This document shows positions 22,254 to 57,105 of a stretch of 64,000 nt of DNA, in pieces (the first letter of the stretch is position 1; each line of letters begins with the position of its first letter). The notes beneath the pieces are model-generated. The model was not told the DNA's origin. It saw nothing but the letters and a program-made list of their open reading frames with translations, and searched no databases. A program made the position numbers and the translations under genes. Source of the stretch: an uncultured Planctomycetota bacterium (lineage in GTDB: Bacteria; Planctomycetota; JBBTDB01); the NCBI GenBank assembly GCA_964530615.1, contig CAZHAR010000001.1:12420-76419 (forward strand), written 5' to 3'.

Positions 22254-22339
22254 GCCGAAGTGGCGGAATTGGTAGACGCGCTAGATTCAGAGTCTAGTTC
22301 CCGTTAAAGGGAGTAAGAGTTCGAGTCTCTTCCTCGGCA
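22254..22339 (+). tRNA. tRNA-Leu (anticodon CAG), class II with long variable arm; CCA not encoded
   Basis: GCCGAAGTGGCGGAATTGGTAGACGCG... 5' end. Anticodon loop TTCAGAG. Long extra arm. T-loop TTCGAGT. 3' ...CTCGGCA. Confidence 0.85.
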
Positions 22340-29748: not shown

Positions 29749-29764
29749 GGGTCATTTTAAAATT

Positions 29765-29865
29765 CCCTACTGTCATTGCGAAGGCAGTGAAGCAATCTCC
29801 GAAAGATTCAAGCGGTACGGAGATTGCTTCTTCGGCTTGCGCCTCATCGCAATGACAATAGGGAC
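29765..29865. repeat. MITE/REP-like nested palindromic element, family 'tgtcattgcgaa', copy A
   Basis: Outer inverted repeat ctactgTCATTGCGAAggc / gcCTCATCGCAATGACAatag. Inner inverted repeat GAAGCAATCTCCG / CGGAGATTGCTTC. Starts 17 nt after the histidine kinase stop. Confidence 0.8.
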
Positions 29866-29929
29866 TTTTTTTTTATAGCGTTGGAAAGATTTTTGCTAGA
29901 AGTGCTTCCACTTAGAAAAATTTCTCTTT

Positions 29930-31015
29930 TTGGAGCTTTCTATGAATTTTCCAACAATATTCATTCTCCTTGTTACCCTTTTCTTCAGCGGTTGTCAATC
30001 CAGCCGTCCTTTTGTAGTGACCAACGCGACTCAACTTGGAGATCTTTATTACCACGGAGAACTAACCGATTCTGAGGGGCATCGCTGGAACGTGATGATC
30101 CTGCCCGGAATTCGTCCTATGGCTCGCTGGAGTGCCGAATCTTTTGAAGAGTGCGGCGATTCACTCTCTTCTTATGGGAAAAAAAGCTTTTGGAACGATT
30201 GTGGAAAATTAGCGGAAGACTCCTTAGAATTTTCTAAAGATTCTCTTGTGGAATATGGCTGGGAAGGAATCGGAGACGACTTCGAGAATGCCACAAAAAA
30301 TATTTCTGACAACGCTTCTCAAGCTCCATTTGGCTGGATTCCCCGAATTATTGGAAATGTGTTTTGGGGCTATGTGCTAAAACCGGCTTTTCGGATCACC
30401 ACCGCGCCGGTCGGTGCGGCGATGGGAGCTTGTGGAACCCTTATTCTACCAGCAGGATATGCATTGGCTCCAATAGGATATACGATTGGAAACTCGACTC
30501 TGAATGGAATTCTCATTCCGACATTAGGAATAACGGCTCATCAACTGGTTTATCTCATGGTTCTTCCAAACCGCGAACCCTCGGAATCAATGGATGGTTC
30601 TTTTGGTTTGTATATTATTAACCCAGAATCAAAGACAGTCGAAAAAACTCCAGAAATGACGCTCTCTCCAGAGGATTTGAAAAAACTGTTTCTCCTCTTT
30701 TTACAGTTGAAAAAGGCTCAAGCGGAATATGAATGGAGGTCTCAAGAATACTATAAAGCCAGCGATCAACAAACGCAGTTAGACGCTGACGTCAACGCGT
30801 GGCACAGTGGCGAAACTTTAAAGCTTTCGCCAGAAACGCAACAGTATTTGAATCGTCAATTTAAAAAGGACTTTGAAGCCCAATGGAACAAAATGCAACA
30901 ATCCAACTCTGAAAACATCGCTCCCTATTGGAAAAACCTAGACGGGAGCTTTCAAGAATTTCAAGAATTGCTGAATGCAAAAGTCCCTTCAATTATTATT
31001 TCACCACAAAATTGA
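29930..31015 (+). CDS. Lipoprotein, hypothetical (central hydrophobic region, C-terminal coiled coil)
   Basis: Lipobox FFSGCQS. Its 3' end overlaps the convergent leuS 3' end by 20 nt. Confidence 0.45.
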
Positions 31016-33662
31016 CCAGTTTATTGGGAACGAACACTATTTTTTGAATCGTCTTGCCTTCCAGCGCTTTCTGGATTTTATCGAGGCCCATAATCTGACT
31101 TTCCAGTTCGGCTTGTGGCATATCTTTCGGAAATTCAAAAGCGCCACGGAGTTTTCCGTTGACCTGAACTGCAATATTGACCTTCGTTTCGATCAGATAC
31201 TTCGGATCCGCTTGTGGCCACGATTCATACGTCAGCGTTGTGGTATGCCCTAAAGCTTCCCATAATTCTTCACACAGATGTGGAGCATACGGAGCCAGCA
31301 ATATCACAAACGGTTCCAGTACCGATTTGGGTTTTTCTTTGCTGGCGGTCAGGGTATTAACAAATTCCATCATTCGACTGATCGCCGTATTAAAACGCAT
31401 ATTTTCTGTATCAAATGTCACGGCTTCAATCGTTTTATGCAAAATGCGTAATTCTGCTTCAGTGGCTTCTGCCGTGGGCGAAACCTTGTAGTTTCCATCG
31501 CTATCAAAAAACAGTCTCCACACCCGATTCAGAAACTTGGAGACGCCTTCCACTCCTTTCATAGACCACGGTTTTACAATTTCTAACGGGCCCATAAACA
31601 TTTCAAACAGCCTCAGTGAGTCTGACCCATACGCTTCGATCACATCATCCGGATTGATGACATTTCCGCGACTCTTGGACATTTTTTCCATAATCTCATC
31701 CAGCGGATATTCCAGATATTCTGGATGGTGAGGCTTGTCTTGAATAAACTGAACCTCTTTAGAAGAGAAGACTTTTTCTTCCAGCAGTTCGTTTTTTTCT
31801 TTACTGTAATAGTCGGTATCGCCATTTGCGTTCGTTTTTTCCACAACTTCTTTATACCGATAGACGGGTTTGGATTGCCCTTTCGGAATAAAGCCTCGGT
31901 AGGTATATCCCAAGATCAGTCCTTGATTCACCAGTTTTTGAAAGGGTTCTTTCGTATGAACATAGCCCAGATCATACAAAACCTTGTGCCAAAAACGTGC
32001 GTACAACAGATGCAGAACCGCGTGTTCAGCGCCTCCTACATACAGATCTACGGGCATCCAGTATTTTTCAGCTTCTGAGGACCACGCAGATTCACTATTT
32101 TGAGGATCAATATAGCGCAGATAGTACCAACAAGAACCCGCCCATTGAGGCATCGTGTTCGTTTCTCGCTTTGCTTTCATCCCTGTTTCTGGATCAATGG
32201 TTTCGACCCAAAAACGAACATTGGCCAGCGGAGATTCTCCGGTTTCTGAGGGTTGGTATTTCTCAACTTCCGGGAGTGTCAGTGGCAATTCTGATTCTTT
32301 CAAGGGTTTGGGACCTTTTTCGGTATGCAGGATCGGGAAGGGTTCTCCCCAATACCGTTGGCGACTGAAAACCCAATCTCTCAGCTTATAATTGATTTTC
32401 CGAGAGCCTATTTTGTTTTTTTCCAGATGCTCAATCATTTTATTTTTGGCGGTCGCGCTGTTCATCCCATTCATAAAGTCGGAATTCACTGAAACGCCAT
32501 CACCTGTAAAAGCTTCTTTATTCAGATCTCCACCCGAAACGACTTCCACAATTTCCAGATTGAATTTTTTGGCAAATTCATAATCACGAGTATCGTGTCC
32601 CGGGACGGACATAATAGCTCCGGTTCCATAGCTCATCAGTACATAATCCGCAATCCAAATCGGAATCTGTTTTTGGTTTACGGGATTGATCACACTCGCG
32701 CCAGTAAAGACGCCCGTTTTTTCTTTAGCCAAATCCGTACGATCCAGATCGCTTTTGCTCGCTACTTTCTTTTGATAGTCTTCCACCGCCGATTTTTGAG
32801 CAGGGGTCGTTATCTTGGGAACCAGCGGATGCTCAGGAGACAGAACCATAAAGGTCGCTCCAAACAGCGTATCCGGGCGGGAAGTAAAAATCATTACAAA
32901 ATGTTTATCAGGAGAATCGACTTGAAAACGAACTTCGGCCCCTTCAGAGCGTCCGATCCAATTTCTTTGCTGTTCCTTAATCGCTTCGGGCCAATCCAGT
33001 GTTTCCAAATCGTCCAGCAATCGATCCGCGTAGGCCGTGATTTTCAGCATCCATTGCCGCAGATTTTTTCGGCTGACTTTGTGATTACAACGATCACAGC
33101 GTCCTTCCTTGACTTCTTCGTTCGCCAGTCCGGTTTTGCAGGAATGGCACCAGTTAATGGGCATCTCGGATTCATAGGCCAACCCTTTTTCATACAATTT
33201 CAAAAAAATCCATTGGGTCCATTTATAATAGGAGGGATCGGTCGTATTGACTTCGCGATCCCAATCATAAGAGAACCCCAGTCTTTTGATCTGTCGTTTA
33301 AAATTCTGGATATTTTTGGCGGTCGTCGTTGCCGGGTGAGTTCCCGTTTTCAGCGCGTAGTTTTCCGCAGGTAATCCAAATGCGTCCCAACCCATAGGAT
33401 GAAGAACATTAAAGCGGTTCATCCGTTTAAAGCGACAATAAATATCTGTCGCGGTGTATCCTTCTGGATGTCCGATGTGCAACCCTTCTCCGGAGGGATA
33501 AGGAAACATATCCAGACAATAAAATTTCTTTTTTTGAGGGTCGATTTCAACTTTAAACGTTTTGTGAATCTCCCAATAGTCTTGCCATTTTTTTTCGATA
33601 CTGGCAAAATCATAGTTCCCGCGGATTTTCGGCGACATAAACATTCCTCTGGCAAAATTCAA
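30996..33662 (-). CDS. leuS: Leucyl-tRNA synthetase
   Basis: HIGH motif (LHIGHPEGY), KMSKS motif (KMSKSRGN), CP1 editing and zinc-cluster regions. The true start may be the internal Met 9 (33638). Confidence 0.92.
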
Positions 33663-33764
33663 TTCTGAAAAAAGGTTTCTTTAAAGGTGGAAAGAATTAT
33701 ACTTTAAAAGGAAATTTTCAAAATAGTTCAGATGTATTGCTTTTCACTAAGAAGAGAGAATATT

Positions 33765-35837
33765 ATGAGTTTTCGTAGAAGTTTGAATTTTTTTATCTTC
33801 AGTTGTTTTTGCCTCTCAGGGATCCTAGCGCAAGAGGCTTCCGAAACTCTTTTATTTGAAGCCAAACAAAAATATAAAGAGGCCCAGCAAGAAAATGAAC
33901 GAGTGCTTCAAGATCCCTCTACTACTCAGCGACAAAAGACCATTCGATCCATTCGCCACGCTTTGAATGTGTATTCTCAAATCATTGAACAATATCCAGA
34001 GAAGGAAGAAAGCGTCACCGAAGAGATGGCTGTCTTAAATTCTTGGCTATTTTGGACCCGAAAATTTGCGCCCATTGATTTCAAGGAAGAGGACTCCGAG
34101 ACGAAACCAGAAGACCCGCCAAAACCTCCAAAGGAATCTCCGAACTCCCCTGAAGAAGCCACGGAAACTGGAGAGGATATTTCTTCATTGCCCCTTGATC
34201 TCCAGAAAATCGAAAAGATAGAACCCCCCCCAGAGATTGAGAAAAAGATCCTCTCTCAGGAGCCAACACGTGAAGCCAAATACCCTTTGGAAACCGCTTG
34301 TTATTTTCGTCAAAAAATAGCGAAAATGCTCCAAAATCGTCGATTTTTCGAGGCCATTGAACAATGCAAAAATGCCCGTGCGAACGCGATGAATCTAGAA
34401 TATCAAGCGGAACTTGACGGAATGGCCGAAGATCTTCAATCCTGCCTTCAACTCTACCAACAATGGATCGAGGTGCTCAAGGACCCGTCTGCATTAACGC
34501 TGAAATTTAAGCTCATCACCGGACTTAAGTTAGAAGGGTCTGTGAAAAAATTTGACCAGAAACTTCTTCATGTCGAAAGTACTCAAGGAACAATGGGAAT
34601 CAATATTTTCATGCTTTCGACGGAGACACTGATCGAAATGGCAAAACTGAAAAAATTGCCACAACTTGAAGAATTAGGCACTCTCTTAGCCTTCTGGGAA
34701 GGAAACGCGAGTAAAGCCGGAGAGGGCTTTAAATCTCATAACGATTTCAAAAATGCGACGACCTATCTGAAAAAACTGGAACAATGGAAATCTCACGAAA
34801 AACAAGTTCAAACGTTGGAAAAAGAAAGATCAAATCAATTTAAACAGACGGAAAAAAGCTATGATTTGTTCAACCAAGTACTCGAAGAGTTGAATCACAA
34901 AGACGAAAACAAGGCCCTTTATGAAATTTCCAAACTGTGTCCGCTTCTGACCCCAGAAACGACTCAGGAAATGGAAGAATTGCTGAAAAAAGAGATTAAA
35001 AAAGACTGGATCCAACTTATTTCTGATCTCCGTTATCGATGCACCACTTGTAATGAAGATCGAAAACTTTCTTGTACGCCTTGCAATGGAAAGGGACGAA
35101 CCAAGAATCCTCCTCATTTCTCGGCAAAACCAGACAGTAGCGGACAATTTATCTGCCCGAAGTGTAAAGGGCAAGGGATGTTTACTTGTGGCGCCTGTGT
35201 CTGGCGCTTTGGAGATCCGAAAGCGCAAGGAGTTGAAAAATATTTTGCGGTTCCGTCCGCGACCACGGAAAAAAAACTCTATTCACCTCTTCAAAAAACA
35301 GTCATTACGGGCGAAGTACGTTGGGGCGATCTTCTCTGTGAAGAGTTTAACGTGATATTAATTGGAACTGGGGCTAATCATGGTAAAGAAGGCAAAGCCT
35401 ATCAAACAGAGGTTCAATCCGGCAGTTATTTCCAATTTGAAGTGCCACAAGGATCCTATAGTTTGTTTTATTGGAAAGATACCGTCGTATTTCGTAAAAA
35501 TATTATCGCGGATAAAGGATCTCTACAGGTGAACCTCGCTATCAAGAGCACTATTGATTTTTTAAGTCCAGAAGAGCCAAACGCAGTTCTCACGCGCCCA
35601 CCTTTCTTAAAATGGACTCATAACAAGGAAGAACATTTTGTAGTCAAAGTATTTCAAATAGAAAATTCTAAAAGCTTCTTCCAATATAAACCGATTGCGA
35701 TTTTTTATCAGGTCGGGAACAGTCTGTTGATCCCAAAAAAAGAAGCGGTTCTAGGAAAAACTTATCTCGTGTTGATTCATGGCTATGGAGGAACCCAATT
35801 AATGAGTCAGGGGCGAACCACGTTCAAAGTTAAATAA
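33765..35837 (+). CDS. Secreted coiled-coil protein with a DnaJ-type cysteine-rich zinc-finger (CxxCxGxG) module
   Basis: Signal peptide MSFRRSLNFFIFSCFCLSGILA. CTTC...CTPCNGKG...CPKCKGQG...CGAC gives four CxxC pairs with the GxG spacing typical of the DnaJ zinc-finger. C-terminal beta-rich domain. Confidence 0.5.
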   Translation: MSFRRSLNFFIFSCFCLSGILAQEASETLLFEAKQKYKEAQQENERVLQDPSTTQRQKTIRSIRHALNVYSQIIEQYPEKEESVTEEMAVLNSWLFWTRKFAPIDFKEEDSETKPEDPPKPPKESPNSPEEATETGEDISSLPLDLQKIEKIEPPPEIEKKILSQEPTREAKYPLETACYFRQKIAKMLQNRRFFEAIEQCKNARANAMNLEYQAELDGMAEDLQSCLQLYQQWIEVLKDPSALTLKFKLITGLKLEGSVKKFDQKLLHVESTQGTMGINIFMLSTETLIEMAKLKKLPQLEELGTLLAFWEGNASKAGEGFKSHNDFKNATTYLKKLEQWKSHEKQVQTLEKERSNQFKQTEKSYDLFNQVLEELNHKDENKALYEISKLCPLLTPETTQEMEELLKKEIKKDWIQLISDLRYRCTTCNEDRKLSCTPCNGKGRTKNPPHFSAKPDSSGQFICPKCKGQGMFTCGACVWRFGDPKAQGVEKYFAVPSATTEKKLYSPLQKTVITGEVRWGDLLCEEFNVILIGTGANHGKEGKAYQTEVQSGSYFQFEVPQGSYSLFYWKDTVVFRKNIIADKGSLQVNLAIKSTIDFLSPEEPNAVLTRPPFLKWTHNKEEHFVVKVFQIENSKSFFQYKPIAIFYQVGNSLLIPKKEAVLGKTYLVLIHGYGGTQLMSQGRTTFKVK

Positions 35838-35839
35838 CC

Positions 35840-36097
35840 CCTTATTCTCATTGCGAACGCGGTGAGAAGCCATTTTAAAAATAGAAGAATTCGGATTTTT
35901 CCTTTTTGTCATTTCGAAGCGATAGCGAGAAATCTTAAGGTTTTTAGCGATACCTAAGATTTCTCTTCGGCATAAAGCCTCATCGAAATGACAGAGAACA
36001 TGATTTTTAAAATGGCTTCTGAAGCAATCTCCGTTATGCTTGAAATTTGCAGAGATTGCTTCGTCGCCTTTGAGGCTCCTCGCAACGACAATAAGAT
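35840..36097. repeat. MITE/REP-like composite element, family 'tgtcattgcgaa', copy B (about 258 bp, 2-3 nested palindromic subunits)
   Basis: Terminal inverted repeats cttatTCTCATTGCGAAcgc ... gctcCTCGCAACGACAataag. Internal subunits tgtcatttcgaagcg...cctcatcgaaatgaca and gaagcaatctccg...agagattgcttcg. Fills the gap between two gene 3' ends. Confidence 0.8.
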
Positions 36098-36119
36098 CTG
36101 TTCTCAACAACGGGAAAGA

Positions 36120-38396
36120 TCAGAGCATTGCGAGCGGGTCCACGTCAACCGCGCATTGAATTTGTTCGTCACTCTGAAGAAATTTTCGACAGGTTCTTTG
36201 GAGTTGTTGTAACGCAATCGGATTTGCGCTTTTGGCTAGAAGCTGAAACCTGAACTTATTTTTAATTCGCATAATTGGGGCCGGAGCCGGTCCCAGAATT
36301 TCGATTTCTGGAGTGGCCAGTTTTCGGATCGCCTCCGCAATATTTTCGGCTCGCTTTTGGACCGCCAGATTTTCTTCTCCTCGAATTAAAATACGCATTA
36401 AAAAGCCAAAGGGCGGATACCCTAGATTTTCCCGAAACTGGAGTTCTTCGCGCGCGAAATTTTCATACTCTCCGCGAGAGGCTTTTTGGATTGCATAATG
36501 TTCGGGTTGAAAGGTCTGTACCACAACAAGACCCCGTTTCCCTCCGCGACCTGTGCGTCCAGAGACTTGAGCAATCAATTGAAAGGTTCGCTCCGCCGCG
36601 CGGAAATCCGGAAAGTTCAATGCGGAGTCTGCATGAATCACTCCGACTAAAGTGACATTATGAAAATCAAACCCTTTCGCGATCATCTGAGTGCCGATCA
36701 AAATATCGATTTCATGTTGTTGAAATTGAGAAAGCACTTTCTGATACAAGTTTCCGCTACGCATACTATCGCCATCCATTCGAGCGATTCGAGCTGTGGG
36801 AAAAATGGTTTGGGTCAGGGCCTCAATTTTTTCTGTCCCGGATCCTAGGTAACGTACGGTAGAAGAGTGACATTCTGGACAGCTTTCCGGTGGAGCCTCG
36901 TCTGAATTACAATAATGGCAAATCGCGCGTGCCATTTTTTTATGGAAGGTCATCGAGACATCGCAAAACGCGCATTTCATGACCCATCCACATTGTTTAC
37001 AATCTAGATAGGTTGAAAAACCGCGACGATTGAGAAAAAAAATCGCCTGTTCTTTGCGTTCGAGACATTCATTCGTCGACTGTTTTAAGAGGCGCGAAAA
37101 GAGAACAAACTGTTTCGTTTCTCTCATTTCACTGCCCATATCGACCACATAGACTTGGGGCATCGATTGGTTATAAACCCGATTTGTCAATTTAATATGA
37201 TGGTATTTTTTGGTACAGGCTTTGTGATAAGTATCTAAAGACGGTGTGGCCGTTCCGAGAATCACTGCGGCGCCTTCCATTTTAGCGCGCATAATGGAGA
37301 CTTCCCTCGCATGATAAAAAGGAGCATTCTGTTGCTTAAACGAAGTTTCATGTTCTTCATCAAGAATAATTACGCCCAACTTTTGTACCGGAGCAAATAC
37401 CGCAGAACGAGGCCCAATCACCACATCCGCGTTTCCTTCAAAAATGTATTTCCATTGATAATGTCTTTGAGCATCAGTGAGTTTGGAATGGAGAAGCGCA
37501 ACTCGAGAAAATCGCTGTTTGAATCGTGCCACGGTTTGAGGAGTCAACGCGATTTCTGGAACCAGAACAATGGCTTGTTGCTTTTGTTCAACGACTTTTT
37601 GAATCGCGCGTAAATACACTTCTGTTTTTCCGGAACCCGTGACTCCTTCAAGCAAAGTAACTGAAAAATGCTGAGGTTTTAAGAGGGGTTCCAGTTGATC
37701 CATCGCACTTTTTTGTTCCACAGTCAATTTATAAACGGGGGCGGGTACCGAAAGGAGATCGCCAAAGGGGTCGAGAGCGACTTCTCGCTGTTCCCACTGC
37801 AAAATTCCTTTTTTTTTCAGGGTGAGAATCGGAGAAACCGTTATTCCAAGGATTCGAGCCAATTCATAAGGATGGAACTCTTGATCGATTCCTTCTTTAA
37901 AAACGCGTAAAATGCGGGACTGTTGTGGATATTTTTCATCCAGTTCCTTAATTTTTTGGTCGAGTTCGGTTTCATTCAATTTCAGGCGGATGAACGGGGT
38001 GAGTCGAGAGCGAACTTGGTTTTTGACCGCGCGTGGGATAAAGGCTTCTAATACTTCGCCTAAAGAACAACAATAATAATTACCGATCCATTCGGCTAAC
38101 CGAAGAAGGATTGGCGAGATCAAAATTTCTAGATCGAGAACTTCTTGAATATCACGAACCGGAAAAACCTCGGGTTGAGCCAAAAGCGTAATACAAAACC
38201 CTGTTTCCACTCGATTGCGAAACGGAGCCTTGACTCGTTTACCAATCGCGATTTGATTTTTTAAGTGAGGGGGAACCCGATAATGAAAGAGGCGAAAAAT
38301 GGGAAGCGGGATAGCCACAGCACAAAAAAGCTCTTCCGCTTGCACGGAAGGTTGAGGATTTTCAACAGGAAGTAGCGATTGTGGAGGCGTATTCAA
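36120..38396 (-). CDS. priA: Primosomal protein N' (replication restart helicase PriA)
   Basis: Walker A GVTGSGKTEVY. DEEH box ILDEEHETS. Cys4-Cys4 zinc-binding insert CKQCG...CAFC...CHYC...CPEC. C-terminal domain. Confidence 0.9.
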   Translation of the reverse strand: MNTPPQSLLPVENPQPSVQAEELFCAVAIPLPIFRLFHYRVPPHLKNQIAIGKRVKAPFRNRVETGFCITLLAQPEVFPVRDIQEVLDLEILISPILLRLAEWIGNYYCCSLGEVLEAFIPRAVKNQVRSRLTPFIRLKLNETELDQKIKELDEKYPQQSRILRVFKEGIDQEFHPYELARILGITVSPILTLKKKGILQWEQREVALDPFGDLLSVPAPVYKLTVEQKSAMDQLEPLLKPQHFSVTLLEGVTGSGKTEVYLRAIQKVVEQKQQAIVLVPEIALTPQTVARFKQRFSRVALLHSKLTDAQRHYQWKYIFEGNADVVIGPRSAVFAPVQKLGVIILDEEHETSFKQQNAPFYHAREVSIMRAKMEGAAVILGTATPSLDTYHKACTKKYHHIKLTNRVYNQSMPQVYVVDMGSEMRETKQFVLFSRLLKQSTNECLERKEQAIFFLNRRGFSTYLDCKQCGWVMKCAFCDVSMTFHKKMARAICHYCNSDEAPPESCPECHSSTVRYLGSGTEKIEALTQTIFPTARIARMDGDSMRSGNLYQKVLSQFQQHEIDILIGTQMIAKGFDFHNVTLVGVIHADSALNFPDFRAAERTFQLIAQVSGRTGRGGKRGLVVVQTFQPEHYAIQKASRGEYENFAREELQFRENLGYPPFGFLMRILIRGEENLAVQKRAENIAEAIRKLATPEIEILGPAPAPIMRIKNKFRFQLLAKSANPIALQQLQRTCRKFLQSDEQIQCAVDVDPLAML

Positions 38397-38406
38397 GGAG
38401 GTTCCT

Positions 38407-38448
38407 CAAAAAAAAAAGGATTTGCAACACTCGATGAGGGCAAATCCT
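38407..38448 (-). terminator. Rho-independent terminator (minus strand)
   Basis: On the minus strand: AGGATTTGC-14 nt loop-GCAAATCCT perfect 9-bp stem followed by a T10 run. It sits between the stop of the 38478 gene and the priA start. Confidence 0.75.
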
Positions 38449-38477
38449 GAACATCAACGAACAAAAAAAAGAGGGAA

Positions 38478-38909
38478 TTAACGGCCTTCCGTTTCTTGTT
38501 TATTCATTTTTTCTAAACCTTTTTCAAGATCTGCAGGGCCAAGTCCTTTATCGCTTCCTTCGTTATAGGCGATAATTTCTCCATCGGAATCAATCCGACG
38601 AACCCCGATCAGTCTGACCTTTGAGCCCCCTTTGCATTCATAAACCATAATGGCTTTATGTTCGCCAGTGACTTTACAGAGCCATAATTGTTGTGTAGAG
38701 CTTGCATAGTTTACGGCGACTGCAATATATCCATTTCCGCTGTCCACATCGGCTTCTGCACGGTTCATTTTGCTATCGACCACAATCATCCCTAAGAGAG
38801 CCACACACATACAAAGAAGAACGACGATTGTTTTAGAATAAGCAGTTGTGTTCATACGTTTTCCTTTCAATTTAGAACTATTAATATCCTGCCTAAAAAG
38901 ACGAGACAC
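38478..38909 (-). CDS. Hypothetical small exported/membrane-anchored protein
   Basis: Hydrophobic N-terminal segment after the probable start at Met19 (MNTTAYSKTIVVLLCMCVALLGMIVV). No recognisable domain. Confidence 0.4.
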   Translation of the reverse strand: MSRLFRQDINSSKLKGKRMNTTAYSKTIVVLLCMCVALLGMIVVDSKMNRAEADVDSGNGYIAVAVNYASSTQQLWLCKVTGEHKAIMVYECKGGSKVRLIGVRRIDSDGEIIAYNEGSDKGLGPADLEKGLEKMNKQETEGR

Positions 38910-39082
38910 TCTCCCATTTGTGACAAAAAAATATTTTTATCGGAAGAATTTTTGAATTTTAAAGAATCGCTGACTTTATTTTATGCTTCATTTGGATGGA
39001 AAAAATCTTTTTAAAGCTCGTGCATTGTATCAGGGACTTTTTTAAAATACAACTTCAATTTTTGAACGAGGCCCTATAAAAA

Positions 39083-39883
39083 ATGAGCTATTGGGGGAGT
39101 GCTGTGACCTTTTTTTTGTTTATTGAAGCCATTGGAATATTTCTGATGGTTGTTTGTAGCTTTTTAGTGATGCTTTCTTTGACCGTCTATTTTGCTTTTT
39201 TTCCTGAAGAACGCAATCGACTACAAAAGCGAATTCTCCTTATTTATCGGGGCACTCACGATCGATTTCTTTCTGGAATCACGAAAAGAAATCTGGAAGA
39301 AGAAGAGTTGAACAAAAAAATTGTTCATTGGGTGGATCGTGGAAATTGTTTAGAACTTCATTTGTTGATCAAGAAGCACTCCAGTGCGCATAAAAAAATT
39401 ATGTCGCGATTAGAGTCGAAACAAGATTATCTGTTAGGGGTCCAATTAGCCGATAAACTTCAAGATCCGCAATTAAAACAGGATTTTTATCGAAAAATTT
39501 ACGCGAAAGCGCTCGCCGCTAAAGATTATTTTCTCGCGATTGATTTCGCTAAAAAAATTCCCGATTATAAAGCGGCTTATGAATTGATGAAAACACAAAT
39601 TAAAGAGGTTTCTCACTTTATGGAACTCGGAGAAATGGCGGAAAAAGCCGAAGCGTTTGAAGAAGCCATTGCTTATTATCAAAAAGAAAACGCGCTTTAT
39701 GAAATCGCTCGTTTGCTGATCCGTCAACATCAAATAGATCGTCTGTTTGATTATTGCAAAGACGTCGGCCATAAAAAAGTAGCGGTGATGGTCCTGGCTC
39801 CCTTAAAAGAAGCCGGACTCGCCGAAGAAGCCGAACATCTCAAGCAAAAATTGATAGCCTATGAGGCCACTACCTCGCATTGA
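39083..39883 (+). CDS. Hypothetical membrane-anchored alpha-helical protein
   Basis: N-terminal TM helices and a helical, TPR-like C-terminus. No catalytic motifs. Confidence 0.4.
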   Translation: MSYWGSAVTFFLFIEAIGIFLMVVCSFLVMLSLTVYFAFFPEERNRLQKRILLIYRGTHDRFLSGITKRNLEEEELNKKIVHWVDRGNCLELHLLIKKHSSAHKKIMSRLESKQDYLLGVQLADKLQDPQLKQDFYRKIYAKALAAKDYFLAIDFAKKIPDYKAAYELMKTQIKEVSHFMELGEMAEKAEAFEEAIAYYQKENALYEIARLLIRQHQIDRLFDYCKDVGHKKVAVMVLAPLKEAGLAEEAEHLKQKLIAYEATTSH

Positions 39884-41144
39884 GGAACGGGATTTTAGGA
39901 AAGGAGCGACCCAGAATTTTTGAAGAATCGGTTTTAAACCAGTCTTCCAGAATCGAGGCATACACCGCTCGGAAATCAATGTTAAATTTAAGATCTCCGC
40001 CCCGATCCAGATCGGTCAGGCTAGGATAGGCGCTATTGAAACCGGGTTGTAGTTGTTCTCCTAAAATAAACATAGGGCCCGCGGTTCCGTGATCGGTTCC
40101 ACGACTTCCATTTTCGCGGACTCGCCGTCCGAATTCGGAGAAGGTGACAGTGAGAACTTCCCGGGAACGGTTATTTTTCTTGAGATCGTTATAAAAATTA
40201 CTGAGCGATTGAGCCAATTCTTTCAGTAGATTCGCCTGCTGGTTGGGTTGGTTGGCATGCGTATCAAAACCGGCAAACGAGACATAATAAATACGGGTCG
40301 GTAATCGTCCAATAATCAGATCGGCCACAATTTTAAGATCACGTCCCAAACGATTTCCTTCGTATCCTTCCGTGACGCGCTTTTGTTTTCCGACGTTAAC
40401 GACCTGATCCGAACTGACCATCGCGTTTGCGGTGACGGTACGTAAGTAATCAAGGTTCGAGAGAGAAGAAGCGGTCTGAGTTTGACCGACTTTATTGAGA
40501 GTTCGGAACGTACTTTGTTGGTCGGATCCGCCTCCGCGACCTTCGATCCATTTGAATTGGGTCGGATTATCAAAAGAAACACCGCGGCCCGATTTCCCGT
40601 CAAACGCCATAGGCAATTTGGGGCCAATATTGACACCACATACATTTTGCGGGGTACTAACACAACCCTGATCTAAATAGCGTCCGATCCAGCCATCATG
40701 AAGGTATTGTTCGGAATCAGAAGCCGTGTGCCAGATATCCATCGATCGGAAATGAGAGCGATTCGGGTTTGGGTAACCCACCCCGTTAAGGACCGCAAGT
40801 TTTCCTTCTTCATATAATTTTTTAAAGGGTTCTAGAGATTGATGAAGTGCGATGTTTTCATTCAGCGGAGTGAGTTCGCTGGTTTTCAGGCCAAGCACTT
40901 GGGAACGTGCTCGATAGTAATCATCATTTTTATAAGGGACGACGGTGTTTAATCCATCGTTTCCTCCGCTAAGTTGGACCATCACTAGAATCCGGTCATC
41001 CTGAAAGCCGGGAATGGGAGTTTCTTCGGGTGAGGCATAGAGAAACGGGCGAGAAAGAAACGTCGGTAATGCGACCCCAGCGCTAACGACAAAAGCGGTT
41101 TGCAAGAAATCGCGTCGAGTATAAAGAGTTTTTCGTTCGTTCAT
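39870..41144 (-). CDS. DUF1501 family protein (alkaline-phosphatase/sulfatase-like fold) with twin-arginine signal
   Basis: TAT motif TRRDFLQTAF followed by a hydrophobic stretch. Conserved DUF1501 body. Start set at MNERK, internal to the track ORF. Confidence 0.7.
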   Translation of the reverse strand: MNERKTLYTRRDFLQTAFVVSAGVALPTFLSRPFLYASPEETPIPGFQDDRILVMVQLSGGNDGLNTVVPYKNDDYYRARSQVLGLKTSELTPLNENIALHQSLEPFKKLYEEGKLAVLNGVGYPNPNRSHFRSMDIWHTASDSEQYLHDGWIGRYLDQGCVSTPQNVCGVNIGPKLPMAFDGKSGRGVSFDNPTQFKWIEGRGGGSDQQSTFRTLNKVGQTQTASSLSNLDYLRTVTANAMVSSDQVVNVGKQKRVTEGYEGNRLGRDLKIVADLIIGRLPTRIYYVSFAGFDTHANQPNQQANLLKELAQSLSNFYNDLKKNNRSREVLTVTFSEFGRRVRENGSRGTDHGTAGPMFILGEQLQPGFNSAYPSLTDLDRGGDLKFNIDFRAVYASILEDWFKTDSSKILGRSFPKIPFLNAR

Positions 41145-41197
41145 GGAAAAAACCTTTCCTGATCGGGTTATTTGTAGGGGCACGGCGTGCCTGCCTT

Positions 41198-42742
41198 TTA
41201 GCATAATTGGTATTCGGCAAGAGAGAGTATTAAATGGACGACACTGCGTAAATCACGCTCTGTTGTTGTTTGTAAAGAGAGTACAGAAGTTTCGGTACCG
41301 CTTTTAAAAGCTTGAATCAAGAAATCGCGTTGGTCGCGATCCAGCGTTTTTCCAAGAAAACGAATTGTCAGGAAATCGATGACTTCTCCGAGGGTAAATC
41401 CTTCATAAGGTCCAAAAAAAGTGTATGCGTTCAATGGAGCGCGGTTCTGAAACTTTTGAATTCGTTTTTGAATTCGTTCGACTTCAAGCGAATCCGCCAT
41501 TTCATCGAGTTCCAAGCGTTTGGGATTTTGAGGCATTACCCCATTGACAAGAAATGCCGAGAGATTATAGCGAATCAGAATGGTATTGGTGTCAATCCAA
41601 GCGCGATTTCCGGGCCATCCTTTGACATTGGGTGGGAGAAAGAGTTCTTGCCCAAGTTGTCGCATTGCCACTTGGAGCAAGCGTCCACGAGCTTGTTTTT
41701 CCTCTTCTTCCGTAGAGTCGAGAAAGGGAATTTCTAACTCCTCGAATAATCCCAAAATCAATTGAACGGGGCTTTTAATCTGGTTCATCATCGCAGACGG
41801 AGAATAAAATGCAGTGGAGAGAAAGATGGCGCGAAGCAGAGGAGCCAATTCGAAATGGTTCTCTCGAAAGACTTTGCTGAGTTCTTCAACGAGTGCGGGC
41901 GAAGGTTCTTCTTCGACAAAAAATTCCCAGAGTTTTTTCGGAACAAATTCACTCACCGCTTTTTGTTCAAAAATAATATCGAGGATCTGGTTTCCATCGA
42001 AGTTTCCCGTACGTCCCATAAAGGTTTTGGAATCGAAGTCGTGTTGTCTCGCGTTATGAAAAAATTCGCCATTGCGTTGGGTCCACCCTGTAAAAGAGCG
42101 AGCGGATTCTTTGATATCTTGTTCAGTATAATTTCCAATGCCGAGGGTAAAGAGTTCCATGAGTTCGCGGGCCCAATTTTCATTAGGTTTTCCCTTTACA
42201 TTTTGCATATTATCGAGGTAGCGAAGCATCGCGGGAGATTGGCCAACTTTCGTCACTAGTGTTTTAAAATTTCCCATGCCTTCGGTACGAAAAATTTGGT
42301 TGAGTTGGTAATTAAACGAGGCGTTTTTTATTTTTTGCGCAGAAGTAGCGAAATGGCCATGCCAAAAGAGGGCGAGTTTTTCTTGAAGCGGACGAGTGGT
42401 TTGTTTCATACGTTTAAGCCACCACAGTTGAAGGCCGTGAAGTTGTTGATTTTCTTCTTGGCGAATTTGGCGCATCAACATTTCACCTTCGTTTTTTCCG
42501 AGGAGTTTGGCAGACATCGCCATCGTTTCAACATCGATATTTTCTTTAATCCATGCGGGTTCTGGAAAGGGATCTTCTATTTTTTGTACGTCGACAAACG
42601 TATTCACGGCCCCTTGTACTCCGAGTCGAAGCAGTTCATTGATTCGGCTATCCGGAAGGCCGAAACCGGCTCTGTTTAGGAAGTGTCGAGCTTTTGCTTG
42701 ATCCCAAGAAGACTCCGGGAGTGGATTTAAAAAAGACATCAT
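41198..42742 (-). CDS. DUF1800 family protein (canonical partner of DUF1501)
   Basis: N-terminal ...ARHFLNRAGFG typical of DUF1800. It lies directly upstream of the DUF1501 gene in the same orientation. Confidence 0.7.
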   Translation of the reverse strand: MMSFLNPLPESSWDQAKARHFLNRAGFGLPDSRINELLRLGVQGAVNTFVDVQKIEDPFPEPAWIKENIDVETMAMSAKLLGKNEGEMLMRQIRQEENQQLHGLQLWWLKRMKQTTRPLQEKLALFWHGHFATSAQKIKNASFNYQLNQIFRTEGMGNFKTLVTKVGQSPAMLRYLDNMQNVKGKPNENWARELMELFTLGIGNYTEQDIKESARSFTGWTQRNGEFFHNARQHDFDSKTFMGRTGNFDGNQILDIIFEQKAVSEFVPKKLWEFFVEEEPSPALVEELSKVFRENHFELAPLLRAIFLSTAFYSPSAMMNQIKSPVQLILGLFEELEIPFLDSTEEEEKQARGRLLQVAMRQLGQELFLPPNVKGWPGNRAWIDTNTILIRYNLSAFLVNGVMPQNPKRLELDEMADSLEVERIQKRIQKFQNRAPLNAYTFFGPYEGFTLGEVIDFLTIRFLGKTLDRDQRDFLIQAFKSGTETSVLSLQTTTERDLRSVVHLILSLAEYQLC

Positions 42743-43009
42743 AATCTCCTTATCAAAAGAATTTATGCGGAAGAGGAGCAAATGGTTTTTATATTACGCA
42801 AATCTAAAAAAAATGTGGTGTTCTTTATGGGTGATTTTTTTTAAATTGGCTATTTGTCTTCTATTAAAATTATTGATAAGATGAAGTTTCGCAGAGGTCG
42901 TTTTAAATCGACGCTCCCCCCATCTAAAAATATATTCTAATCCCTGTCTCTAGGAACCTTTAACCTCGCCTCTTGGTATTATTAAACTTCTTTGCCTTAA
43001 AGGATATGT

Positions 43010-44125
43010 ATGTTCCGATGGAAATGGATTGCCTTCTATTGGCTGAGTTGTGGATGTTTTTTTTCGACGGCCCAAAATCTTGAGCCGTTTTCTTCTAAAG
43101 AATTTCTTGCTCGACTAGAGGCTCCACTAGTTCAGAGGATTCGCTGTGATTTGCGACAACGACAACTTTTAGAGACTTCTCATTCTCCGATTAAAGCGAA
43201 TCGTCCGATTCGCTTGCGAGACGATCTCTGGCAATGCCCCCTCTCTCATGATCCCTTAAAAATTTTTCATTTTCTAGATATTCTTCCTTCTCAGCAAGTC
43301 GATGTCTATTATTCCGTAAATTTACATGGTTACTGGACTCGTGTTTTGGGGACAGATGGACAAGAAATCTGGAACGGACGATTTCAATTTGGATTTGCTG
43401 AAGAACCCGAGAATTTGTCTCCGGAAGATCGGCCCGGCATGAAGGAAGTAGAGCGTTTTATTCAAAATGTGATGCTCGATGAAAAAGAAGGCGGAACTGG
43501 TTTTTTTGAAAATCAATTTGCGGGAATCCAAGCCTTGGGGCCAAAAACAGTGTTTCGTTTAGATACGTTGATTCGGGATCACTTACAAGATGAAGAGTTT
43601 CAATCTTTGTGTTGTCGGGCGATCGGAGAACTCAGAGATCTGCAAGCTATTCCTTTTTTAAAGAACTATTTAAATGATGCCTTTATTCATGAAGGCGTCA
43701 AACAAGAAGCTGTTTATACGTTAGCGGAACTCGGCGATCGCGGTATTATTGATCAATTGATTCATAATTATCAGAACGCGTTAAAACACCCTCAAATGGC
43801 TCCAATTCAAAAGATCGCTTTATACACACAACTTGCGACAATCTATTACCGTTTAAAGGAATTTGATAAATCGATTGAATGTTATCAATGTTGTATCCAA
43901 ATTAATGCAACAGATATCACCTATTACAATCTAGCTTGTATGTACGCGAAACTCGGACAAGTCGACAAAGCGATCGAGAATTTGGGACTCTCGATTCAAA
44001 AAGGATATGATCAAGTCGCTTGGATGAAAAAGGACGGGGATTTAAATGGGTTGAGAGAGGACCCTCGCTTTATTGAAATGATTCAAACTCTGGAAGCCAA
44101 ACAGAAAAAAGAAGAACAACAATAA
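43010..44125 (+). CDS. Secreted HEAT-repeat plus TPR-repeat protein
   Basis: Signal peptide. HEAT-like AIGELRDLQAIPFL, YTLAELGDRGIIDQL. TPR-like C-terminus (YYNLACMYAKLGQVDKAIENL). Confidence 0.5.
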   Translation: MFRWKWIAFYWLSCGCFFSTAQNLEPFSSKEFLARLEAPLVQRIRCDLRQRQLLETSHSPIKANRPIRLRDDLWQCPLSHDPLKIFHFLDILPSQQVDVYYSVNLHGYWTRVLGTDGQEIWNGRFQFGFAEEPENLSPEDRPGMKEVERFIQNVMLDEKEGGTGFFENQFAGIQALGPKTVFRLDTLIRDHLQDEEFQSLCCRAIGELRDLQAIPFLKNYLNDAFIHEGVKQEAVYTLAELGDRGIIDQLIHNYQNALKHPQMAPIQKIALYTQLATIYYRLKEFDKSIECYQCCIQINATDITYYNLACMYAKLGQVDKAIENLGLSIQKGYDQVAWMKKDGDLNGLREDPRFIEMIQTLEAKQKKEEQQ

Positions 44126-44147
44126 GAAACCACTTTAAAGTCAAAAT

Positions 44148-44295
44148 CCCTTATTGTCATCGCGAGGAGCCAATGAAACGGTCGTTACGCATCTCCGGTA
44201 TGCTTGTCATTGCGAACGCAGTGAAGCAATCTCCGGTATGCTTGAATCTTTCGGAGATTGCTTCTTCGGCTTGCGCCTCATCGCAATGACAATGA
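44148..44295. repeat. MITE/REP-like element, family 'tgtcattgcgaa', copy C (one and a half units)
   Basis: cttaTTGTCATCGCGAGGAGCC ... TTGTCATTGCGAACGCAGTGAAGCAATCTCCG ... CGGAGATTGCTTCTTCGGCTTGCGCCTCATCGCAATGACAatgag. Starts 23 nt after the upstream stop and runs into the 5' end of the annotated histidine-kinase ORF. Confidence 0.8.
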
Positions 44296-44321
44296 GAGAT
44301 TCTTTTTTTGGGGGGGCAATT

Positions 44322-46343
44322 ATGGGAAACGCGTCAGAACCCACGCTTTTAACTCAAATTACTCACTGGAGCCAGTATTTCACAGCCACTCAAGATGCCA
44401 TTTTGATTGTGGATCTTCAGGGAACCAACAAATTTCTGAATTCAGCCATGGAGGCAATGTTTGGCTATTCTTCGGACGAGGTTTTGGAGAAATCCGTGGA
44501 AATTTTTATTCCACCTAGCTCCCTCGAAAAACATCGGAGCGGATTTGAAAAGATGAGCCAAGCAACAGAGATTGCTTTACGATCAGTTCGAGAAGTAACC
44601 GGTCGAAAAAAAGAGGGCACTTCTTTTCAGGTTGAAATGGAAATCAATCGGATTAGTCAAAATAATCAATCGTTCTTTATCGCGGTTATTCGCGATCTGA
44701 CCCCCCGAAAAAAAATTGAAAAAGAGCTACTTTGGGCCAAAGAAGCCGCGGAAGCCTCCAGTCGTTCCAAGAGTGGTTTTTTGGCGAACATGAGTCATGA
44801 ATTGCGAACCCCCTTAAATTCAGTGATCGGTTTTTCCAATATTTTATTAAAAAACAAGCACCAACATTTAACCTCGCAAGAGTTGACTTATTTAGAGAAA
44901 ATTCAGAAAAATGGCAATCACCTGCTGAAGTTGATCAATTCCATTTTGGATTTGTCAAAAGTCGAAGCGGGTCATGTGGAGCTACATCTTGAAACGTTCT
45001 GTTTAAAAACTTTGATTCTAGAGGTATTACAAAATTTAGAATCTCAATTTATCGAAAAAAAACTGGAAGTGATGCACCGATTTCCACTCACTCTGGAAAT
45101 GATTCGAACGGATCGAGAAAAACTCAAACAAATTCTGATCAATCTGATTGGAAACGCGATTAAATTTACCGAAAAAGGCTACATCAAGATTCATATCGAA
45201 TCGGACTCCGAAGATCGTCCGACTCATATTCATGTGATCGATACCGGGATGGGAATTCCTAAAGAAAAGATGGAAACTATTTTTGAAGCTTTTCAGCAGG
45301 CGGATGACTCTATTTCAAGACAATATGGAGGAACCGGATTAGGGTTAACGATTTCTCGTGCTTTATTAGAGTTAATGGGGTTTTCTTTACAGGTGAGAAG
45401 TACTTTTGGAGAAGGTTCTATCTTTACGATTATTCTAGTTAAAACGCTTCAAATTTCATTGTCCCATGAAACCCCTCCTCCAATGAGGGTAGATTCTGGT
45501 TTTACAGGAAATAAGAGTAATTCGATCGAGGAAATGTATGAAGAAAAACCTCTTCCCCCTAAATTAGAAAAGAAAATTTCAGCGAAAACAGAGATCATTC
45601 AACTTCGTTCTGCTTTTGCAAATCTCCCCGTGAACTCTGAGTCTGAAGAAATAAAAAAAATATCGATTACGGAGCAGTTAGCGAACAAGCTTATTTTAAT
45701 TATTGATGACCAAAATGATTCGTATCTTTTAATTAAAGATCATTTACAAGAATTTAATTGCGAAGTTCTTTGGGCAAATTCAGGAAGACAAGGGTTAATA
45801 CTCGCGGAAGGACTTTTGCCAAGCATGATATTTCTAGATTTATTAATGTCTCCCATTACTGGTTGGGAAATATTAAGAACAATGAAAGAAAATATGCTGT
45901 TAAAATATATTCCAGTGATTATCGAAAGTATTGTGGGTAAAGAAAATCAACCCTCCCTTGAGAAAACGGCCTATATTCTGGAAAAACCCTTTGGGCGAAA
46001 AGAACTTATTAAAGCATTAGAGGCTGGCTTAAATTATCGAGAAAAAACCAAAGTACTTATTGTCGAAAAAAGTGAGGACGCGAGAAAAATTATTCTCGCT
46101 TTTTCTCAAAGCAAGAAAACGGATATGGAATTTCGAATGATTCTTCAAGAAAAAGAACTCCCAAAACAGATCCAAGAATTCAATCCAGATCATATTATTT
46201 TTCAGCGAACTCTTTTTCCGCTAAATACCAATGCATTTGCAGTTCAAAAAAACTATAAACAAGTGCAGGAGTATTTAGAAATGCTTGTTAAAAGTCTCAA
46301 TGAGATTTCTAATATTTTCGGACATGATGTACCAACCACTTAA
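44322..46343 (+). CDS. Hybrid sensor histidine kinase (PAS, HisKA, HATPase_c, receiver, degenerate second receiver)
   Basis: H-box MSHELRTPLNSVIGFSNIL. G-box GGTGLGLTISRALLE. Receiver LILIIDDQ...IFLDLLMSP. Start moved to the ATG at 44322 because the first 168 nt of the track ORF is a translation of the MITE. Confidence 0.8.
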   Translation: MGNASEPTLLTQITHWSQYFTATQDAILIVDLQGTNKFLNSAMEAMFGYSSDEVLEKSVEIFIPPSSLEKHRSGFEKMSQATEIALRSVREVTGRKKEGTSFQVEMEINRISQNNQSFFIAVIRDLTPRKKIEKELLWAKEAAEASSRSKSGFLANMSHELRTPLNSVIGFSNILLKNKHQHLTSQELTYLEKIQKNGNHLLKLINSILDLSKVEAGHVELHLETFCLKTLILEVLQNLESQFIEKKLEVMHRFPLTLEMIRTDREKLKQILINLIGNAIKFTEKGYIKIHIESDSEDRPTHIHVIDTGMGIPKEKMETIFEAFQQADDSISRQYGGTGLGLTISRALLELMGFSLQVRSTFGEGSIFTIILVKTLQISLSHETPPPMRVDSGFTGNKSNSIEEMYEEKPLPPKLEKKISAKTEIIQLRSAFANLPVNSESEEIKKISITEQLANKLILIIDDQNDSYLLIKDHLQEFNCEVLWANSGRQGLILAEGLLPSMIFLDLLMSPITGWEILRTMKENMLLKYIPVIIESIVGKENQPSLEKTAYILEKPFGRKELIKALEAGLNYREKTKVLIVEKSEDARKIILAFSQSKKTDMEFRMILQEKELPKQIQEFNPDHIIFQRTLFPLNTNAFAVQKNYKQVQEYLEMLVKSLNEISNIFGHDVPTT

Positions 46344-46369
46344 ATTGATTTAAACACCGGGATTATTTT

Positions 46370-46735
46370 ATGCTCAAAAAAATAGTATTAGTTGAAGACA
46401 ACGAAGATAATCGGCTTCTTGTGAATGCCATTTTAGAAGGGTTATACGAAATTATCGAATATGAAACAGGAATTGAAGCCATCGAAAAATTAGCGTCGTC
46501 CAAAGCCGATTTAGTTTTATTAGATATTTCTTTACCTGGAAAAGATGGAATCGAAGTCGTAAAATGGATTCGTACTCAACCCTTACTTAAATTGCTTCCA
46601 GTCATTGCTTTGACGGCTCACGCAATGGAGGGAACGCGAAAAATGCTAATAGGTCATGGGTTTACGGACTATTTGATGAAGCCGATTATTGATGAAAACA
46701 ATTTATTAGATACGCTCAAAAAATTTTTAAACTGA
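46370..46735 (+). CDS. Single-domain response regulator (CheY-like receiver)
   Basis: IVLVEDNEDN...LVLLDISLPGKDG...ALTAHA receiver signature. Confidence 0.8.
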   Translation: MLKKIVLVEDNEDNRLLVNAILEGLYEIIEYETGIEAIEKLASSKADLVLLDISLPGKDGIEVVKWIRTQPLLKLLPVIALTAHAMEGTRKMLIGHGFTDYLMKPIIDENNLLDTLKKFLN

Positions 46736-46746
46736 TTCAAAACTTT

Positions 46747-47106
46747 ATGACTACTGAAAACGGGATTGATTGGAAGAAAATTAAAAATCTGCAAAAAATA
46801 GGTGGAGATAAGCTCTTAAAGAAACTCTATATCCTATTCTTGGAAAAAACACCACAACAAGTGGACTCTTTTTTTCAAAACTATCAAATTCAAAATTGGA
46901 GAAATATTGAAAATACGGCGCATTCTCTGAAATCGAGTACAGGAAATTTAGGGCTTACCTTACTTTACTCCTTGTCTCAAACTCTGGAATCAAAAGCTCA
47001 TCAAGGTATTTTTTCTGAAATTCTTCCCTTGATCCAATCTTTTCAGAGCGAATTCGAGCGCATACAACCCATTTTACAACAAGAACTTCAGAAAATGCCG
47101 AGTTAG
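46747..47106 (+). CDS. Hpt histidine phosphotransfer protein
   Basis: AHSLKSSTGNLGL phospho-histidine motif in a roughly 120-aa helical protein. Confidence 0.7.
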   Translation: MTTENGIDWKKIKNLQKIGGDKLLKKLYILFLEKTPQQVDSFFQNYQIQNWRNIENTAHSLKSSTGNLGLTLLYSLSQTLESKAHQGIFSEILPLIQSFQSEFERIQPILQQELQKMPS

Positions 47107-47112
47107 AAGCCA

Positions 47113-47143
47113 ATTATTGTCACTGCGTTCGCAATGACAATAG
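47113..47143. repeat. Minimal copy (terminal inverted repeats only) of the 'tgtcattgcgaa' element, copy D
   Basis: attaTTGTCACTGCGttCGCAATGACAAtag, a near-perfect palindrome 7 nt after the Hpt stop between convergent genes. Confidence 0.7.
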
Positions 47144-57088: not shown

Positions 57089-57105
57089 GATTGTCCCCGA
57101 AAGAC

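Follow-up and report, generated by a model that had tools for sequence, protein, structure and literature searches.

Palindromic repeats at the locus

The 64,000-nucleotide stretch of contig CAZHAR010000001.1 analyzed here (GenBank assembly GCA_964530615.1, positions 12,420 to 76,419), hereafter the window, belongs to an uncultured Planctomycetota bacterium and harbors four related sites of nested palindromes, copies A to D, at 29.76, 35.84, 44.15 and 47.12 kb, where an earlier note on this DNA had placed them. These elements are probably hairpin repeats of the type known in Neisseria as NTS and in other phyla as Ssn-related motifs (SRM), putative targets of the small GIY-YIG nuclease Ssn, present here as gene-less inverted doublets. 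The genes around them are ordinary housekeeping and signaling genes, encoding two histidine kinases, leucyl-tRNA synthetase, PriA, a TPR protein, a response regulator, an Hpt protein and a SpoIIE-type response regulator. Every copy is intergenic, at a distance of 3–29 nt beyond a stop codon, as the earlier note had observed in general terms; copies B and D stand between convergent genes, and because A and C stand between co-directional ones, the three convergent settings counted before are reduced to two.

The repeats exceed chance expectation by a wide margin. The outer 11-mer TGTCATTGCGA has 10 matches in the window with at most one mismatch, against 1.2 expected, and the inner 13-mer GAAGCAATCTCCG has 9 matches with at most two mismatches, against 2.3 expected; in neither case did any of 100 shuffled sequences reach the observed number. 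Folding energies were computed as single-stranded DNA (ssDNA), with z scores relative to shuffled controls; for the full units they came to -21 to -34 kcal/mol, with z scores of -5.4 to -8.7. The occurrence of four sites within 17 kb has a probability of about 0.06 under uniformity by a rough calculation, so clustering is not claimed. A short-read contig of the same organism (L003) stops 5 nt into copy C (window position 44159), as expected if the repeat is present in multiple copies in the genome.

The half-unit and its covarying stem

The repeating module is a half-unit that reads, on its sense strand, GTC-ATTGC-GA, a variable hairpin, and GA(A)-GCAAT-C, and the strict half-units of the window measure 26–35 nt. 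Two half-units in inverted orientation, separated by a short loop, make up the full unit of 87 nt. The module had previously been taken for a unit of 100 bp, and neither the actual unit nor its ssn (GIY-YIG) partner had been recognized. The window contains six strict half-units and four degenerate or truncated ones. GTC precedes the palindrome in all six strict half-units, while the degenerate copies carry CTC, or GTCG in place of GTCA; a C directly follows the palindrome in every strict half-unit (GCAAT-C or GAAAT-C). Most copy ends also share TTATT or CTTATT just 5' of GTC, a stretch that would coincide with the region of the expected Ssn nick. The shared terminal and inner inverted repeats from which a family of 31 to 258 bp had been proposed do relate the copies to one another, except that copy D lacks the inner repeat.

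Two compensatory stem types occur in the window, namely ATTGC/GCAAT in copies A and C and the outer part of B, and ATTTC/GAAAT in the inner unit of B, where the latter replaces the former and defines a second sub-family. A covariation search was carried out in which only the unpaired letters were fixed (GTCA-N4-GA...GAA-N4-TC) and pairing was not imposed. The two N4 segments were perfectly complementary in 404 of the 601 candidates, against 234 expected when partners were dealt at random, and thirteen alternative stem types were present among these candidates. The 5-bp stem thus covaries.

Probable identity with the NTS/SRM system

The Neisseria NTS, CGTCATTCCCGCGMAVGCGGGAATCYRG, contains the dRS3 palindrome and is bound and cut by SsnA, a GIY-YIG nuclease of 94 amino acids from the cd10448 family (Chenal et al. 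2025, Nat Commun 16:2388, PMC11893778). SsnA cuts ssDNA only and on one strand only, its cut lies upstream of the motif by a few nucleotides, and it does not bind RNA; mutagenesis showed that the GTC before the palindrome matters most for cutting and the C right after it for binding (PMC11893778). NTS-like SRM flank ssn homologues in many phyla, 81% of SRM-rich genomes encode an Ssn, and the NTS-ssnA-NTS layout has been called insertion sequence (IS)-like, although its mobility was not demonstrated (PMC11893778).

The flanks of the half-unit match those of NTS (CGTCATTCCCGCG..GCGGGAATC), in that an ATT.C/G.AAT palindrome is preceded by GTC and followed by C. The window elements are accordingly not a new kind of element; they are a variant of NTS/SRM in sequence and architecture, found in a Planctomycetota metagenome-assembled genome (MAG). 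The earlier description of REP-like or miniature elements holds insofar as they are multi-copy, intergenic, hairpin-forming repeats and copy B resembles an insertion, but the partner to which they point is ssn rather than a transposase.

Linkage to ssn genes in other genomes

Linkage to ssn was approached from both sides. About 230 loci were picked by the repeat alone, with all open reading frames (ORFs) in them considered, and a small GIY-YIG protein was the only recurrent neighbor. All five of the small GIY-YIG genes in these loci lie 8–44 nt from a half-unit, against 946–5536 nt for the control families (four-helix-bundle and DUF559). At locus L223 the order is half-unit, 40 nt, GIY-YIG ORF, 14 nt and inverted half-unit, so that the gene occupies the "loop" of a full unit. 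The half-unit-linked proteins are 97–109 amino acids long with PF01541 as the sole domain, and one is 52% identical to an N. gonorrhoeae gene (E 4e-22, 92% coverage) that sits among canonical NTS copies and is the ssnA orthologue. In annotated Planktothrix and Spirosoma plasmids, ssn is found between full units with the stems ATTCT, ATCCT and ATCCC and the same GA/GAA loop. Other candidate partners were tried and set aside: RAYT/IS200, 23S-IVS four-helix-bundle, DUF559 and GxxExxY proteins showed no link to the repeat, which is a weak negative, and E. coli YhbQ-type GIY-YIG proteins had no matches in the repeat-selected loci.

Conversely, eighty metagenome loci were chosen by Ssn homology alone and scanned for GTC-stem...stem-C hairpins. 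A hairpin lies within 350 nt of ssn in 70 of the 80 loci and on both sides of the gene in 57, and hairpin density falls from 5.1 per kb near ssn to 0.87 per kb farther off. Among 261 stems ATTGC is the commonest (127) and the Neisseria-like ATTCC comes second (43), which makes the ATTGC half-unit seemingly the most frequent hairpin around Ssn genes in metagenomes. The logo of this set reads YGTC-ATT(G/C)C-GAG...CGA(A)-G(C/G)AAT-C. The usual layout is sense hairpin, ssn and antisense hairpin, with essentially identical ends in genomes of 44–68% GC (L303, L319 and L326). Contigs from Hainich groundwater (well H51) encode proteins identical to those of the window; the sole ssn locus recovered from that well (L276) is part of a Patescibacteria MAG, and its stems differ.

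Distribution of the repeat

Two patterns were searched in sequence collections, and by our own estimate less than one match is expected by chance for either. The right-arm pattern GAGATTGCTTC-N(3-30)-TCGCAATGAC, with 21 fixed bases, was found in at least 120 IMG/VR stretches, and the window sub-variant pattern GATTGCTTCTTCG-N(3-25)-CTCATCGCAATGAC, with 27 fixed bases, in at least 116 stretches of species-representative genomes. Among the matches listed, the sub-variant occurs in Bacteroidota, Smithella, Syntrophaceae, Clostridia, Ignavibacteria, Rickettsiaceae and other Alphaproteobacteria, Gammaproteobacteria, Neisseriaceae, Campylobacterales, Endomicrobia, Cloacimonadota, Omnitrophica, Chloroflexia, Nitrospinaceae, Nitrospirae, Melainabacteria, candidate phyla radiation lineages and one Pacearchaeota MAG. 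Ends of 10–14 nt are thus identical over more than 15 phyla and viral contigs. The ATTTC type likewise occurs in at least 120 stretches of IMG/VR, with several copies on many of the contigs. Since the segment inside the two fixed boxes varies freely and is usually self-complementary, the conserved unit across genomes is the half-unit, at 26–45 nt, which also occurs singly and in arrays.

Several loci show particular arrangements. Tandem arrays of full units with a period of about 128 nt, or dense clusters beside an ssn gene, are present in a Rhodothermales MAG (L195 28-450 and L163 7643-7938) and a Christensenellaceae MAG (L198 6332-7496). In related phage contigs (L006, L009, L015, L019, L082 and others), one half-unit directly precedes the ribosome-binding site of a conserved gene that is the same in each (MSKVKES...AFAIVGDPE...). 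Two near-identical IMG/VR phage contigs differ by a 375-bp insertion in one of them (L019 1526-1902 versus L104 5260), and this insertion is bounded exactly by a CCCCCTTT...AAAGGGGG hairpin on one side and a GATTGCC-variant half-unit on the other.

Searches of Rfam and of the literature by sequence did not identify the family. An Rfam search at gathering score, covering the window and 10 repeat-rich loci, returned a tRNA and no repeat family, and an E-value search of copy C gave only sub-threshold matches to generic hairpins (miRNA models). Literature searches by sequence strings returned only unrelated primers and vector sequences, and a 2024 census paper on MITEs (miniature inverted-repeat transposable elements) does not mention the family.

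Anatomy of the window copies

The positions of the copies and their parts are collected in Table 1. Copies A and C are built from one arm pair, in which the left arm is short and of the "AC...GT" form and the right arm is of the "GATGA...GAAGAA" form; the right arms of the two copies, 57 nt long, share 89% identity. An alphaproteobacterial MAG (L196) has this arm pair too, 81% identical across 86 nt. The 16-nt central loop of A (29802-29817) is the reverse complement of the C loop (44236-44251) while the outer arms keep the same order, which suggests from the alignment that the segment between the inverted inner arms has been flipped in one copy relative to the other. Copy D corresponds to the first 19–21 nt of a short-arm half-unit and is identical to 44204-44224.

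Copy B is the most elaborate. Without positions 35866-36019 and one TGA, B and copy C are colinear, and this extends to the loop. B is therefore a unit like that of C into which 154 bp have been inserted, and the insert itself carries a unit of the ATTTC type. Judged from their sequences, the composites B and C look like mosaics that arose by insertion into existing units.

Table 1. Copies of the repeat in the window, their component parts and the associated reading-frame extension (window coordinates; folding as ssDNA)
Feature	Position	Strand	Fold (kcal/mol)	z	Description
Copy A	29759-29869		-34.2 (with flanks)	-8.65	Full unit 29771-29857 (87 nt) plus palindromic extension of the flanks; 22 nt after the stop of histidine kinase gene 28294-29748, upstream of same-strand ORF 29930-31015
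Half-unit A-left	29772-29797	+			GTC-ATTGC-GA-AGGCAGT-GAA-GCAAT-C; SRM sense strand +
Half-unit A-right	29822-29856	-			GTC-ATTGC-GATGA-GGCGCAAGCC-GAAGAA-GCAAT-C; SRM sense strand -
Copy B	35840-36097		-57.2	-7.0	Composite between ORF 33732-35837 (+) and priA 36120-38396 (-)
B outer-left half-unit, 5' part	35847-35865	+			CTCATTGCGAACGCGGTGA; 3' part TGAAGCAATC at 36020-36029
B insert	35866-36019				154 bp; direct TGA repeat on either side (35863-35865, 36020-36022)
B insert, terminal inverted repeats	35866-35882, 36003-36019				Perfect, 17 bp; GAAGCCATTTTAAAAAT and its complement
B2, inner full unit of copy B	35907-35993		-20.9	-6.3	ATTTC/GAAAT stem; half-units 35908-35934 (+) and 35958-35992 (-)
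B outer-right half-unit	36054-36089	-			GTCGTTGCGAGGAGCCTCAAAGGCGACGAAGCAATC; one mismatch in the GTCA box
C degenerate half-unit, left side	44156-44199	+			GTCATCGCGAGG...TTACGCATCTCC
Copy C, full unit	44205-44291		-25.2	-5.4	Half-units 44206-44231 (+) and 44256-44290 (-); between TPR gene 43010-44125 and hybrid histidine kinase gene
Copy D	47117-47141	-			Truncated half-unit; 47120-47138 (-) reads GTCATTGCGAACGCAGTGA, by chance a 25-nt palindrome; between Hpt gene 46747-47106 (+) and SpoIIE response regulator gene 47163-48368 (-)
Spurious N-terminal extension	44154-44321	+			56 codons through copy C, from TTG 44154

Proposed mechanism and mobility

By analogy with the Neisseria system, the half-unit would fold when the DNA becomes single-stranded during replication, repair, uptake or transfer. 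The Ssn nuclease would then bind the folded hairpin, with the C after the stem critical for binding, and would nick the sense strand only, a few nucleotides 5' of the GTC that is critical for cutting. A full unit presents one sense half-unit per strand, so nicks are predicted just outside both ends of the element. Ssn may act in this way on the window copies in this organism and may spread them, and the opposite-strand nicks outside both ends may underlie that spread. Because the same ends elsewhere bracket an ssn gene of about 95 codons in an element about 0.4 kb long, the units of 87 nt look like its non-autonomous, gene-less miniatures.

Beyond this, it is conceivable, at rather less than an even chance, that ssn and its SRM ends constitute a distinct GIY-YIG-driven mobile element with the doublets as its MITE-like derivatives mobilized in trans, such that opposite-strand nicks release or copy the unit and hairpin-preferring insertion generates the nested mosaics. 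The IS-likeness of ssn elements has been raised in published work as a hypothesis only (PMC11893778). Several findings are compatible with such mobility and do not prove it: the architecture is the same with or without the gene, the 154-bp insertion in copy B is clean and accompanied by a 3-bp duplication, the ends are identical in more than 15 phyla, and two related phage contigs provide a filled and an empty site, at which a solo half-unit of 31 nt is flanked by duplicated TCG. Candidate target-site duplications amount to TGA at the copy B insert and TCG in that one phage pair; copies A, C and D have no evident one. An empty-site comparison for the window copies found that the contigs with the flanking proteins all derive from the same strain and that the nearest homologue of the histidine kinase is 42% identical; with no close relative in the collections, there were no empty sites to compare.

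Alternative explanations

Several observations weigh against the assignment to NTS/SRM or its proposed mobility. Half-units taken singly fold weakly (-3.7 to -4.4 kcal/mol), and in the doublet the SRM hairpin has a competitor in the long inter-arm hairpin. Only the Neisseria and Wolbachia enzymes have been shown to cleave, on motifs with perfect stems. No ssn homologue was found in the 64-kb window and 12 kb of flanks (6 kb left, 6.4 kb right), flanks in which no further repeat copies were found either. Mobility driven by Ssn is hypothetical, and the two 3-bp duplications (TGA and TCG) could be microhomology. Finally, our implementation of the published SRM search string, HGTCWYN(0-2)YYVSBRHN(0-5)WNVSBRGN(0-2)RNCYNB, matched 0 of 441 half-units and had no match in the window; the same implementation also missed one filled-in NTSvar test sequence. 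That string was derived from 29 genomes (PMC11893778) and serves as an operational tool, not a definition, and the ATTGC variant appears to fall outside the search pattern yet to fit the published concept.

The absence of ssn from the roughly 76 kb examined lends itself to another account, in which SRM-type repeats survive as relics in a genome without an active Ssn, decaying or passively inherited and exerting incidental hairpin effects only. Only four sites occur in those 76 kb, and several elements have degenerated or been cut short (44156-44199, 35847-35874, 36054-36089 and copy D). However, A and C are intact, with the 89% identity of their right arms noted above and with GTC, GA, GAA and C all kept; moreover, 76 kb is a small fraction of a genome, and an Ssn is encoded in most SRM-rich genomes (81%; PMC11893778). 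Relics are thus unlikely, although they fare better than any of the accounts that involve a different partner or function. A classical MITE, that is, a deletion derivative of an IS moved in trans by a DDE transposase recognizing terminal inverted repeats, would account for the inverted ends, small size and intergenic position, as well as for the 154-bp insert with its 17-bp inverted ends and 3-bp direct repeat. Yet the longer relatives with shared ends (TTGTCATTGCGA) encode a GIY-YIG nuclease instead of a transposase, conservation of the ends extends over more than 15 phyla, unlike that of IS ends, and what is conserved is a hairpin whose stem covaries. Copies A, C and D show no clear target-site duplication and are flanked by inverted rather than direct repeats, and this origin is highly improbable. 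Extragenic palindrome doublets of the repetitive extragenic palindromic (REP)/REPIN type, spread by a RAYT (an IS200-like Y1 HUH transposase), are if anything a shade less credible still. Singlets and inverted doublets are REPIN-like, the copies are intergenic and clustered, and one IS200-like ORF lies 191 nt from a half-unit (L079); but no other Y1-type ORF in about 230 loci comes within 200 nt of a half-unit (another match, a weak one, lies at 2078 nt), whereas five of five GIY-YIG genes do. The conserved box is GTC, no GTAG-type 5' tetranucleotide is present, and the window contains no RAYT.

The position of all copies shortly after stop codons raises a different kind of explanation, namely an RNA-level element, an intrinsic terminator or 3' stabilizing hairpin selected for that role, as the earlier note had proposed. 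T-runs do follow A and C, and the hairpins are very stable. No T-run follows B or D, five consecutive T residues follow only 33 of 372 outer ends family-wide, and single half-units show no orientation bias relative to co-directional neighboring genes (38 versus 33). A scan for consensus terminators flagged no copy, although that scan was uninformative, and conservation of unpaired bases across phyla is unexpected for terminators. The lack of orientation bias, of a consistent T-tract and of an Rfam match points to a DNA rather than an RNA element, and SsnA does not bind RNA (PMC11893778). Selection for an mRNA role is therefore improbable and finds no support beyond the T-runs at A and C, which could give incidental termination.

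Consequences for annotation and for surveys of the system

Repeats of this kind create spurious ORFs and misplaced gene starts, and the predictions made on this point before were borne out. Read-through ORFs with "MLLRLAPHRNDN" correspond to the TTG-started ORFs 29824-30075 and 44258-44518, and "HCE(R/G)SEAIS" is the left arm translated in frame. ORF 44154-46343 of the hybrid histidine kinase reads through copy C in frame, and the ENA gene call indeed misplaces the start at ATG 44286, inside the right arm of the repeat. The partial NCBI product of 465 amino acids fits ATG 44322 exactly, and the PAS domain begins at about residue 18 from that codon, making ATG 44322 the credible start of the kinase.

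Given that the published pattern, in our implementation, misses the ATTGC variant, surveys relying on it may undercount the system. Each new hairpin variant also points to an Ssn with a possibly new specificity of ssDNA cutting. Gene-less doublets that match ssn-bearing units offer a concrete model of how the repeats multiply, a question left open in the 2025 description.

Two other kinds of repeat occur in the window. A second, unrelated palindromic family is present at 10764-10855 and 57099-57143 (minus strand), with a 45-nt sequence, CCTAATGTCCCCCGCTGGCGGGGGATCAAGGGGGTGGAGTCTTTC, that is 100% identical at both sites; at 10764-10855 it forms an inverted doublet with a 12-nt spacer between divergent genes. 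Its GC hairpin also has GTC in front, and its core, GGGGGATYAAGGGGGTG, was found in 18 IMG/VR contigs and directly adjoins an ssn element in L326. Positions 21985-22091 hold a tandem coding repeat of 9/18/27 nt (GAAGAACCTTCTAAAGAA; E-E-P-S-K type) just upstream of a tRNA gene (22254-22339).

Comparison with known systems

The closest counterpart is NTS/SRM with SsnA. Both comprise directional, multi-copy, intergenic hairpin repeats of 20–50 nt with GTC 5' and C 3', and both, the window variant in other genomes, are found inverted on both sides of single-domain GIY-YIG genes of about 95 codons in many phyla. The window motifs differ in having a 5-bp stem, a conserved purine internal loop (GA/GAA) and a variable distal hairpin, whereas the NTS stem is continuous over 9–10 bp, and in occurring as gene-less 87-nt inverted doublets and nested mosaics in a Planctomycetota MAG. 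The dRS3 and NIME repeats are related through the dRS3 core, ATTCCC-N8-GGGAAT, which is the palindrome inside NTS, and through their intergenic mosaics of repeats and intervening segments; stem sequence, organism and doublet architecture set them apart.

The remaining parallels are of organization. REP, REPIN and BIME elements with RAYT likewise show hairpin singlets and inverted doublets, intergenic clusters and a single-copy gene flanked by its own repeats, but the partner here is a GIY-YIG protein rather than a Y1 HUH enzyme, the GTAG box is lacking, and conservation extends over phyla instead of species. The "peel-and-paste" elements of the IS200/IS605 group share recognition of an ssDNA hairpin and a cleavage site offset from it; their HUH enzyme makes both cuts on one strand, whereas the sense hairpins of the window elements lie on opposite strands and their transposition is hypothetical. 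Correia-type MITEs are similarly small and intergenic with inverted ends and give rise to spurious ORFs and annotation errors, and differ from the window elements, which have neither a DDE-transposase parent nor a consistent target-site duplication.

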